Shown here: positions 24,150 through 24,387 of the stretch, piece by piece | Numbering within the stretch: position 1 is the stretch's first letter | Layout of the letters: each line of letters opens with the position of its first letter | Assembly: GCA_017508665.1 (NCBI GenBank) | Contig: JAFVYL010000040.1 | Span: forward strand, 8,309-72,308 | Source: Clostridia bacterium | GTDB taxonomy: Bacteria > Bacillota > Clostridia > Oscillospirales > CAG-272 | Reading direction: 5' to 3' | DNA length: 64,000 bases | Position numbers and translations under genes: made by a program | Notes under the pieces: model-generated | Databases searched by the model: none | What the model saw: only the letters and a program-made list of their open reading frames with translations | Told to the model about the DNA's origin: nothing

Positions 24150-24245
24150 GAAGATTTCATCCGACTTGTCGGATTTCATCCACTTGAGTGGATTTCATCT
24201 GCCATAGGCAGATTTCACCGAGAATCCTTCTCTGTAAGGATTCTC
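24150..24245. repeat. mini-hairpin array, ATTTCAT-linker arm, ending in a CTCTGT-loop hairpin
   Basis: ATCCGAC-tt-GTCGGAT (24159-24174), ATCCAC-ttga-GTGGAT (24178-24193), ATCTGCC-ata-GGCAGAT (24197-24213) and GAGAATCCTT-ctctgt-AAGGATTCTC (24220-24245). TTC or ATTTCAT linkers separate them. Confidence 0.85.
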
Positions 24246-24265
24246 TTTGCCGCCCTGTTTTAATG

Positions 24266-24387
24266 ATGAATTGAGCCTTCGGCTCATGAATTGCACGAGT
24301 GCATGAATTGACGGCAGAGCCGTCATGAATTGCCTACGGCATTATGCGTTCCTTACTCTGTTAAGGAACGCATAGCTTCGCCAAAAC
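24266..24387. repeat. 122-bp cassette 3' module, copy 1 (ATGAATTG-linker hairpin array, CTCTGT hairpin, GCTTCGCCAAAAC tail)
   Basis: Four hairpins (24272-24286, 24292-24303, 24309-24325, 24331-24341), each preceded by ATGAATTG. Then TGCGTTCCTTA-ctctgt-TAAGGAACGCA (24345-24372). About 90% identical to 24835-24956. Confidence 0.9.

Follow-up and report, generated by a model that had tools for sequence, protein, structure and literature searches.

The window analysed here, a 64,000-nt stretch of a Clostridia bacterium metagenome-assembled genome (MAG; assembly GCA_017508665.1, contig JAFVYL010000040.1), carries a cluster of short-hairpin arrays that we relate to Gut-1 (RF01706), a motif catalogued by Rfam, and that we tentatively read as interspersed DNA repeats. 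The arrays lie between convergent transcription units. One is the rplJ-rplL operon; the other, on the minus strand, starts with cotJA-B-C (25753-26800) and runs in the order cotJABC, array 3, junction module, SF0329-family gene, arm 2', junction module, ORF124, arm 2, arm 1, and a bidirectional terminator shared with the rplJ-rplL operon. The wider neighborhood comprises priA, def, fmt, rsmB, rlmN, rsgA, rplJ, and rplL on one side and a YD-repeat protein, DUF4416, and oxidoreductases on the other. Read directly, positions 24150-24373 hold two runs of mini-hairpins in which constant linkers alternate with variable self-complementary units, a grammar that the original prediction had described correctly. 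The arrays of the window are the following:

24153..24219, minus strand: arm 1, three mini-hairpins with (A/G)UGAAAU between them, a Gut-1-type array
24159-24174: arm 1 hairpin ATCCGAC-tt-GTCGGAT
24178-24193: arm 1 hairpin ATCCAC(T)-ttga/tg-(A)GTGGAT
24197-24213: arm 1 hairpin ATCTGCC-ata-GGCAGAT
24220..24245, minus strand: H1, a 10-bp hairpin GAGAATCCTT-ctctgt-AAGGATTCTC with minus-strand loop ACAGAG, a diverged copy of the cotJC 3' end
24246..24265, minus strand: spacer, a truncated terminator remnant aaaacagggcgg corresponding to the first part of the junction-module terminator in loci L365 and L366
24266..24343, minus strand: arm 2, four mini-hairpins with linker CAAUUCAUG (minus strand) or ATGAATTG (plus strand), a linker variant outside the Rfam model
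24272-24286, 24292-24303, 24309-24325, 24331-24341: the four arm 2 hairpins
24344..24373, minus strand: H2, an 11-12-bp hairpin with loop ACAGAG, a cotJC 3'-end copy (ggcgaagc...acagagtaa); repeat families D6 and D8
24835..24941, minus strand: arm 2' and H2', a 92% copy of arm 2 and H2
25585..25745, minus strand: array 3, eight hairpins in a convergent two-arm element that separates the cotJC stop codon from a terminator

The stems of arm 1 are 6-7 bp long with TTC between them; counting the conserved outer bases of the stems, the constant string becomes GATTTCATC, and the run is followed by TTCACC and then H1. Arm 2 has stems of 4-7 bp separated by TGAAT, with CATGAATTG as its constant string. 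The sequence had been quoted accurately, including four copies of ATGAATT(G), while the four ATTTCAT linkers counted in arm 1 are three exact copies plus one ATTTCAC, and the linkers are spaced by 17-22 nt instead of the claimed 19-22. Two arrays had been overlooked, arm 2' (24835-24941) and array 3 (25585-25745), and linker-motif and hairpin scans found no further such array in the remainder of the 64-kb window. Homology links arm 1 to each half of the array at 25575-25752 (48/64 and 41/51 positions identical; alignment score 63 against a shuffled maximum of 29), and the stems CTGCC, CCAC, and CCGAC follow each other in the same order in arm 1 and in 25585-25655. Between arm 2 and arm 2', one stem has undergone a paired substitution, from GACGGC/GCCGTC to GATGC/GCATC. 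The description of this pattern as the inverse of CRISPR logic thus holds as a metaphor only, because units are not acquired: the same stems recur in order, and copies differ by paired substitutions.

A chance pattern or an assembly artefact has a probability close to nil. Short palindromes are common, and a generic scanner for chains of 4-bp hairpins gave equal numbers of "arrays" for the window and for shuffled sequence, so that it was useless without linker constancy and longer stems and was dropped. However, the linkers themselves are enriched, with 12 window matches of ATGAATTG against 2.7 expected (8 of them within 24266-24901) and 7 of GATTTCAYC against 1.5 expected (4 of them in arm 1), and the 311 nt of 24100-24410 fold with z-scores against shuffles of -9.5 on the minus strand and -8.1 on the plus strand. 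The locus is present at 99.6-99.8% identity in four contigs, each from a different ENA metagenome assembly (of 23600-25800, three align over all 2201 nt and one over 1192 nt), and the agreement of these independent assemblies rules out an artefact. Dozens of homologous loci, described below, also speak against chance.

In an Rfam scan, arm 1 (24149-24220, minus strand) matched the full RF01706 model (positions 1-77) with 45.3 bits and an E-value of 2.8e-7, which falls below the Rfam gathering cutoff of 50 bits. Array 3 scored 33.8 bits at 25676-25745 (minus strand) and 18.5 bits at 25574-25631 (plus strand), and neither arm 2 nor arm 2' had any Rfam match at E<=10 on either strand. Gut-1 was described from 43 examples in human-gut sequences as "certainly" an RNA by covariation and as probably not cis-regulatory (Weinberg et al. 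2010, PMC2864571), and literature searches found no later work on it. Its hallmarks are three short variable hairpins, conserved (G)UGAAAU linkers, and gut origin, and the minus strand of arm 1, GGUGAAAU-hp-GAUGAAAU-hp-GAUGAAAU-hp-GAUGAAAU (hp, hairpin), has exactly this layout of three hairpins flanked by (G)UGAAAU. Arm 2 has a Gut-1-like layout with AUGAAUU as its linker on the plus strand. By sequence, arm 1 is a near-threshold member and arm 2 a linker variant of this catalogued motif. The earlier view that no described family has such a grammar therefore does not stand, given that Gut-1 consists of precisely three variable hairpins with GUGAAAU between them. The seed alignment of Gut-1 also holds GUGAUAU variants and one sequence in which GUGAUAU-linked hairpins are followed by AUAUCAC-linked ones.

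When one genome of each species was scanned for three GTGAAAT at the spacing of hairpins, at least 65 true arrays were among the 120 stretches listed (loci are given L numbers where they need to be told apart). The MAGs that bear them are mostly labelled Clostridia, Eubacteriales, Oscillospiraceae, Ruminococcaceae, Acutalibacteraceae, or Christensenellaceae, with a few Akkermansia, and come from human, ruminant, horse, and bird guts as well as from gut, rumen, and faecal assemblies. The complete element is ordered as T1, CAACGAAAT, arm A (hairpins 1-4, linker GTGAAAT), a centre, and arm B (hairpins 5-7, linker ATTTCAC), where T1 is a bidirectional terminator of 12-16 bp (AAAAAGCAC...GTGCTTTTTT). 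Stems are 4-8 bp long across the family and mostly 7 bp in arm B, with linkers of 5-7 nt, and each module has three or four mini-hairpins in a row next to an intrinsic terminator. All 33 two-arm elements of the GTGAAAT type are convergent and none is divergent, and they share this one ordered architecture including T1. Arm A of canonical Clostridia elements scores 54-80 bits against RF01706, and arm B also exceeds the Rfam cutoff on the opposite strand in two loci. On this comparison, Gut-1 is one arm of a symmetric element of ca. 180-250 nt. The published motif differs from that element in comprising a single arm, and its description contains neither T1 nor the second, inverted arm, the complementarity of start and centre, the position 3' of tRNA and transfer-messenger RNA (tmRNA) genes, or the loop bias.

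The linkers of both arms change in concert, with four independent types observed: GTGAAAT/ATTTCAC, GTGATAT/ATATCAC, TGAATTG/CAATTCA, and GTTATGA/TCATAAC, the last of them in L370. Linkers that are reverse complements of each other, as had been proposed for the window, are therefore a recurrent feature of the family, though the two linkers of the window itself are complementary at only 8 of 9 positions. Similarly, a helix formed between the linkers is borne out for the canonical element, in which linkers are perfectly complementary and the minimum-energy fold pairs the two arms through them, but not for the window, where the predicted fold consists of local hairpins and a 6-bp outer closure without any linker-linker rod.

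A second long-range complementarity connects the start of the element, GAAAT+X, with the centre, X'+ATTTC, its reverse complement (e.g., L158, 203-310), and extends over 10-12 contiguous nucleotides in 18 of 21 elements. X differs between lineages (AAATCC, TTGCCC, TCGCCT, CCGTCC, or TCGTTC), and both of its partners follow. A strict end-anchored count gives 10-12 for the three common X classes, while CCGTCC and TCGTTC, each represented by one element, give 6 and 0, and in the latter X pairs and the first base does not; X and centre drawn from different elements never reach more than 8. Since X is complementary to both, it can pair locally, in hairpin 1, or with the centre, and its three-way covariation reflects either alternative pairing or templated copying.

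The hairpins are themselves under selection for pairing: the mean perfect stem between linkers is 4.3 bp, compared to 1.6 bp in shuffled sequence and 1.9 bp when 3' halves are exchanged between units. When whole elements were aligned with MAFFT, three sequences were shifted by one unit in arm A; elements were therefore parsed by their linkers and formal covariation assessed on arm B only. In the arm B alignment of 19 elements, both partners have changed in 12 of 13 predicted pairs and 97.9% of cells are paired, compared to 72.1% in shuffles (0/500 shuffles reach the observed value), and sliding the partner by 1-3 columns lowers pairing to 35-49%. The variable units thus keep their palindromic character through compensatory changes in homologous copies, so that the original prediction passes the refutation test it had set itself, while the palindrome sequence is not conserved within an array. 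Pairs other than Watson-Crick make up about 2% of all pairs and are distributed nearly symmetrically between strands (12 vs 8).

The loops mostly have 3 nt and are biased toward the ATTTCAC strand: C(GAA)G occurs 43 times on this strand and twice on the other, C(GCA)G 30 and 7 times, and C(GTA)G 9 times and once, with C(GNNA)G loops present as well, and the full GCGAAGC is found in 16 units on the ATTTCAC strand and in none on the other. These loops resemble the DNA mini-hairpins d(GCGNAGC) and d(GCGNNAGC). Hairpins of the C(GNA)G type in DNA are extraordinarily stable and exonuclease-resistant, require the closing C:G pair, and occur naturally at single-strand initiation sites and in the hairpin promoters of phage N4 (PMC13037366, PMC3201870). 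Those known mini-hairpins stand singly, in phage or plasmid origins or N4 promoters, whereas the hairpins of our element form chromosomal arrays. We know of no primase, Rep protein, or phage polymerase linked to hairpin arrays.

A metagenome scan for three ATGAATTG revealed at least 13 loci with real arrays of the arm 2 type (within L257-L353), none of which reaches the Rfam cutoff. TGAAT/ATTCA two-arm elements are convergent in L324, L333, and L348 and divergent in L269, L353, and L321. L339 has the combination of the window: its ATTTCAT arm bears GNNA loops and is separated by a spacer from a CATGAATTG arm, in which the loops are TNC. In L340, linkers of ATATCGA and then ATTCA accompany GNA triloops directly after the rplL terminator, and the array has the position and orientation of arm 1 although RplL is only 59% identical to that of the window. 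The grammar is thus modular, with several linker types that change together in paired arms.

The genomic position of the element is distinctive. In about 15-16 of 48 loci it lies within 150 nt of a tRNA 3' end, always on the 3' side, with 10 tRNA species involved and T1 always between the tRNA gene and the arms; tmRNA genes are also used. Elements stand in either orientation relative to neighboring genes, beyond tRNA terminators or, as in the window, inside 3' untranslated regions (UTRs). The element is multi-copy, with at least five copies of 96-99% identity at true contig ends in MAG JAZTZP01; between species, copies are 82-93% identical (MAG fragments only). Blocks of T1 and arms are duplicated around inserted genes in L158, L190, L131, and L260, the flanking direct repeats being 89-97% identical in L158, L190, and L131 and the full elements 95-97% in L158 and L190. 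Plasmid and phage collections gave no BLAST match to the element, and an origin from either was rejected on these grounds. None of 120 sampled loci from viral contigs holds a real array, the loose three-linker pattern having matched by chance. In an Akkermansia MAG (L128, 2150-3450), a non-coding unit of ca. 440 nt is repeated three times in tandem and in one orientation (90% and 83% identity), each unit with a Gut-1 arm above the Rfam cutoff followed by a second hairpin array with linker CGAGAT.

The only annotated family that recurs beside the elements is a four-helix-bundle (4HB) protein gene (TIGR02436, PF05635), found in 6 of the 65 loci with its start ca. 50-60 nt past arm B and reading away from the element. 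This 4HB subfamily has more than 7,600 members, nearly all of the best 120 on contigs of 0.5-1.5 kb, and a complete T1 plus two-arm element lies just upstream of the 4HB gene in 16 of the 16 loci scanned out of 32 returned (L374-L405). These 16 loci reduce to about five contexts, namely tRNA-Arg, tmRNA (in two neighborhoods), a large serine recombinase, and L402, and the recurrence of T1, arms, promoter, and 4HB gene across them indicates that they move as a unit. About 90% of elements have no 4HB gene, and any action of the 4HB protein on the arrays is speculation. A variable, overlapping second open reading frame (ORF; DMP19-like or encoding a 183-aa protein) often follows the 4HB gene. We further observed 4HB genes on both sides of tmRNA (L392, 1250-1850) and a 4HB unit between two tRNA-Arg(ACG) genes (L382, 1188-2590). 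In L374 and L376 (1-1500), a large serine recombinase gene ends at a 3' remnant resembling tRNA or tmRNA (..gctccacca), followed by T1, the element, and the 4HB gene, which is the layout that would be expected at the edge of an island integrated in a tRNA or tmRNA 3' end. SF0329 homologues, too, are mostly found on contigs of about 1 kb (0.5-1.5 kb), which suggests that the repeats around SF0329 and 4HB genes systematically break short-read metagenome assemblies.

To place the arrays of the window in their gene context, the following features are needed:

24101..24135, both strands: bidirectional intrinsic terminator, the second copy of the rplL terminator, which ends the minus-strand unit with arms 2 and 1; a 56-59-nt duplicate of 23622-23680
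24407..24781, minus strand: ORF124, a small accessory gene of 124 aa without family match; promoter at 24798-24770
24770..24827, minus strand: junction module, with a terminator (24827-24800) whose T-tract overlaps the -35 of a TG-extended promoter (24798-24770); repeat family D7
24968..25489, minus strand: SF0329-family gene (cassette); Pfam PF25753 (1.7e-41), NCBIfam NF049912
25518..25575, minus strand: second junction module, with terminator 25575-25548 and promoter 25546-25518
25753..26301, minus strand: cotJC (Mn-catalase family); Pfam PF05067 (7.5e-53); its 3' end is hairpin H3, the template of H1, H2, and H2'

A scan of both strands made strong terminator calls of 12-15 pairs that flank the arrays, at 24101-24135, 24827-24800, and 25575-25548. 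None of the hairpins in arms 1, 2, and 2' was called, so that tandem intrinsic terminators were rejected as an explanation, and two weak terminator-like calls fell in array 3 (25723-25737, plus; 25678-25665, minus). The ACAGAG loop of H1, H2, and H2' corresponds to the last sense codons of cotJC (ACA GAG), directly before its TGA stop, and a pseudo-copy of the cotJC 3' end is found in the 3' flank of each cassette both in the lineage of the window and in L365/L366. Arms 1 and 2 had been taken for the two arms of one element; with a diverged cotJC 3' end at the head of each, positions 24150-24387 instead are, on the minus strand, two consecutive junction modules, the first comprising H2, arm 2, and the truncated terminator remnant and the second H1, arm 1, and the rplL terminator.

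The module at 24770-24827 repeats 25504-25583 with 78% identity and is also present in L365/L366. In these loci, the SF0329 gene (84% protein identity) again follows cotJC with the same terminator-promoter module and without any array, and the distance from the cotJC stop codon to the terminator is ca. 20 nt instead of the ca. 170 nt of array in the window, i.e., the site is polymorphic for an insertion or deletion and exists in a filled and an empty state. That the same junction modules exist without arrays weakens the notion of arrays as cassette boundaries, and the runs of small accessory genes look like a cassette array built by junction duplication. Further copies of the terminator-promoter module with TG-extended TATAAT promoter lie at 2880-3010 and 3515-3700 of L365 and at 595-705 of L366. 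A second, unrelated junction family occurs between small ORFs of other Clostridia (L371, 1410-3508; L373; L370, 500-765; L190, 4476-4974) and reads ttgtatcaaaattacagt..agccaaa, a terminator (aaaccgcaat..attgcggttttt), tgtggtataat, ggaaaggcgg, and ATG; in L190, one cassette of this family lies between two full Gut-1 elements.

At a rough probability of 0.45, we favor the reading of these arrays as a REP/BIME-like (repetitive extragenic palindrome/bacterial interspersed mosaic element) DNA repeat that would fold as single-stranded DNA. The element may spread by copying or movement in one piece with its terminator. Its hairpins appear tuned for single-stranded DNA by their C(GNA)G loops and by stems that are near-perfectly Watson-Crick-paired on both strands, and the invariant linkers would be the recognition sites of a putative protein. 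The modules of the window would have been carried along when a junction of cotJC 3' end, terminator, and promoter was duplicated around two small accessory genes, and their arrays, located in minus-strand 3' UTRs, would probably act only as passive stem-loop barriers. Quasipalindromes are corrected by template switching at the DNA level (PMC7202029), and perfect palindromes that diverge without wobble intermediates would also be expected from such correction. Several observations weigh against this reading. No recombinase, transposase, or Y1/HUH enzyme was found among the ORFs of the window scanned against Pfam (9.8-42 kb, ca. 15 kb around the arrays). Among the ORFs of the 65 loci, only the 4HB family and two unannotated families of ca. 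640 and ca. 299 aa are present in more than three, with Y1 not searched directly. The 64-kb window contains only three copies, all clustered, and its arms 1 and 2 obey the GNA loop rule weakly. The remaining points favor a structured RNA, which we consider next.

A structured RNA, either a Gut-1 small RNA or a 3'-UTR module, is the main rival and somewhat less likely in our estimate. The UGAAAU or AAUUCAU linkers could be single-stranded and form a multivalent platform for an RNA-binding protein, or stacked hairpins or a linker-linker rod could block 3'-to-5' exonucleases and thereby stabilize the upstream mRNA. Rfam and Weinberg et al. (PMC2864571) classify the motif as RNA, for which the strong covariation is equally expected, and all arrays of the window lie between stop codon and intrinsic terminator on the coding strand and are therefore transcribed. 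Moreover, C(UUCG)G tetraloops are found in 13 canonical units and, on the transcribed strand, in two hairpins of array 3, and arm B has a slight excess of G.U over A.C (7:2) on the ATTTCAC strand that is compatible with RNA made from it. Either strand of a two-arm element gives the same layout with arms that can pair, and the tandem non-coding unit of Akkermansia looks more like an RNA gene. However, in the commonest context the arms lie between the tRNA terminator and the next promoter, and no promoter was seen that would serve the arms themselves; nor do they keep one orientation toward the genes on either side. Wobble pairs, at about 2%, are scarce for an RNA and nearly symmetric between strands, C(GNA)G triloops dominate over typical RNA tetraloops, and the array is dispensable at an otherwise conserved junction.

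The duplicated blocks around inserted genes invite yet another explanation, folded recombination sites similar to attC or att that would capture promoter-bearing cassettes near the terminators of tRNA, tmRNA, and ribosomal-protein genes with the help of a trans-acting recombinase. The 95-97% direct repeats of L158 and L190, the array after each cassette of the window, the unit of T1, arms, promoter, and 4HB gene in about five contexts, the tRNA-Arg genes on both sides of this unit in L382, and the large serine recombinase abutting a tRNA-like 3' remnant and the element in L374 all fit, yet we regard this explanation as very unlikely: the same cassette junctions exist without array (L365/L366, L371-L373), what is repeated between cassettes is the terminator-promoter module with the cotJC 3'-end copy and not the array, no recombinase was found among the ORFs scanned near the window locus or recurs in the 65 loci, and no conserved crossover core was identified. 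Equally doubtful to us are linkers serving as double-stranded iteron- or operator-like sites for a regulator or nucleoid protein at an adjacent promoter, spaced by two helical turns and in inverted sets, with the hairpins being secondary. Such sites would account for invariant linkers among varying units, a spacing of 17-25 bp that approximates two turns, the two arms as inverted sets, and promoters 20-60 nt past arm B in 4HB loci and several cassettes, but they give no reason for palindromic, compensatory units (97.9% paired vs 72%) or a strand-specific loop bias. In addition, the roughly 90% of elements without 4HB gene do not fit them, and the arrays of the window precede a terminator and not directly a promoter.

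REPs are known to bind gyrase and to stabilize mRNA. With REP, BIME, and REPIN repeats the element shares an extragenic position, multiple hairpin copies, location at gene 3' ends or between convergent genes, inverted pairs, the potential to be transcribed as 3' UTR, and a conserved short flank beside the palindrome (PMC3116915, PMC3337134). In the window, the arrays follow stop codons between the convergent rplL and cotJ units, and elsewhere elements lie 3' of tRNA and tmRNA genes. They differ in that their palindromes are very short and vary from unit to unit while the linkers are constant, whereas whole arms are complementary in REPINs, and in that no RAYT/HUH gene was found among the ORFs scanned near the arrays. 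Like attC sites, the elements keep structure over sequence and occur where small accessory genes form runs and direct repeats surround inserted genes, but the arrays have no R and L boxes and the cassettes of the window possess their own promoter and terminator; integron attC sites were rejected because the scanned ORFs (9.8-42 kb) include no integrase or recombinase and the arrays no conserved GTTRRRY core. CRISPR was rejected because the constant part has 5-9 nt instead of 24-48, palindromic units recur between arrays, and no neighboring gene is cas-like. Repeats resembling type III antitoxins were discarded, as toxin-antitoxin repeats are near-identical units unlike those of the arrays, and so was a GGA sponge of the CsrB kind, with loops of GNA or UNC that are not GGA-rich. 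We also dropped a resemblance of GTGAAAT to ParB/Noc half-sites, as no palindromic full site is present.

Several other repeats and genes of the window deserve mention. The last ca. 115 nt of rplL and its terminator are present twice, at 23562-23680 and, split, through 24138; the second copy consists of 18-, 25-, and 56-nt pieces in order, separated by two inserts (23681-24079 region). One insert is a structured, G+C-rich 144-nt sequence (23743-23886), and the other a near-perfect hairpin of 168 nt (23912-24079) with 24-bp terminal inverted repeats and -71.6 kcal/mol on the minus strand that looks like a miniature inverted-repeat transposable element (MITE). Neither has an Rfam match or a copy elsewhere in the window or the fetched loci. 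The rplJ-rplL operon (22476-23680 with its leader) is preceded by the L10 leader RF00557 (46.4 bits) as usual, has no rpoB/rpoC downstream, and ends at the bidirectional terminator facing the cotJ operon and the cassettes. Upstream of cotJA and on the same strand, an ORF (27105-28124, minus) encodes a 339-aa RHS/YD-repeat protein with about seven 75-nt tandem units (27097-27846; 73-87% identical) and no obvious toxin or N-terminal domain. The 1690-aa product of another ORF (49161-54233, plus) with in-frame 15-nt and 18-nt tandem repeats (52782-52991, 53567-53926) rich in Glu, Thr, Pro, and Ala is probably a cell-surface protein. Finally, an exact-length tandem duplication of 72 nt (19678-19821; 97% identical) lies at the 3' end of the rlmN-like ORF, just before rsgA.

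Going further, Gut-1 might be not a small RNA but an arm of a new class of two-fold-symmetric chromosomal elements, made up of a bidirectional terminator and arrays of linkers and C(GNA)G mini-hairpins and folding as single-stranded DNA with a dedicated partner, for which the 4HB protein, similar to those of 23S rRNA intervening sequences (IVS) and Avd, would be the candidate. Beside tRNA, tmRNA, and ribosomal-protein genes, such elements would mark landing sites at which small genes with a promoter of their own collect. We think that this is quite unlikely, but if true it would amount to a system akin to REPIN/RAYT or integrons in which both site and protein are of a new kind. The implications for the window itself are modest, its arrays being passengers in duplicated cassette junctions. 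For the family they are larger: Gut-1 has been an orphan "certain RNA" of human-gut metagenomes since 2010, with a description of a single sentence, and can now be placed in MAGs of Oscillospiraceae, Acutalibacteraceae, Ruminococcaceae, Christensenellaceae, and Akkermansia, with new handles in its position 3' of tRNA, tmRNA, and rplL genes, its DNA-type loops, its co-varying linkers, the filled and empty sites, and the linked 4HB gene. Should it be an RNA after all, the two-arm layout and the alternative pairing of start and centre would be the structures to model. If our favored reading as single-stranded DNA repeats is true, the Rfam family would need to be reclassified, and gut Firmicutes would prove to have a REP-like repeat system, one that also disrupts metagenome assembly around small accessory genes.

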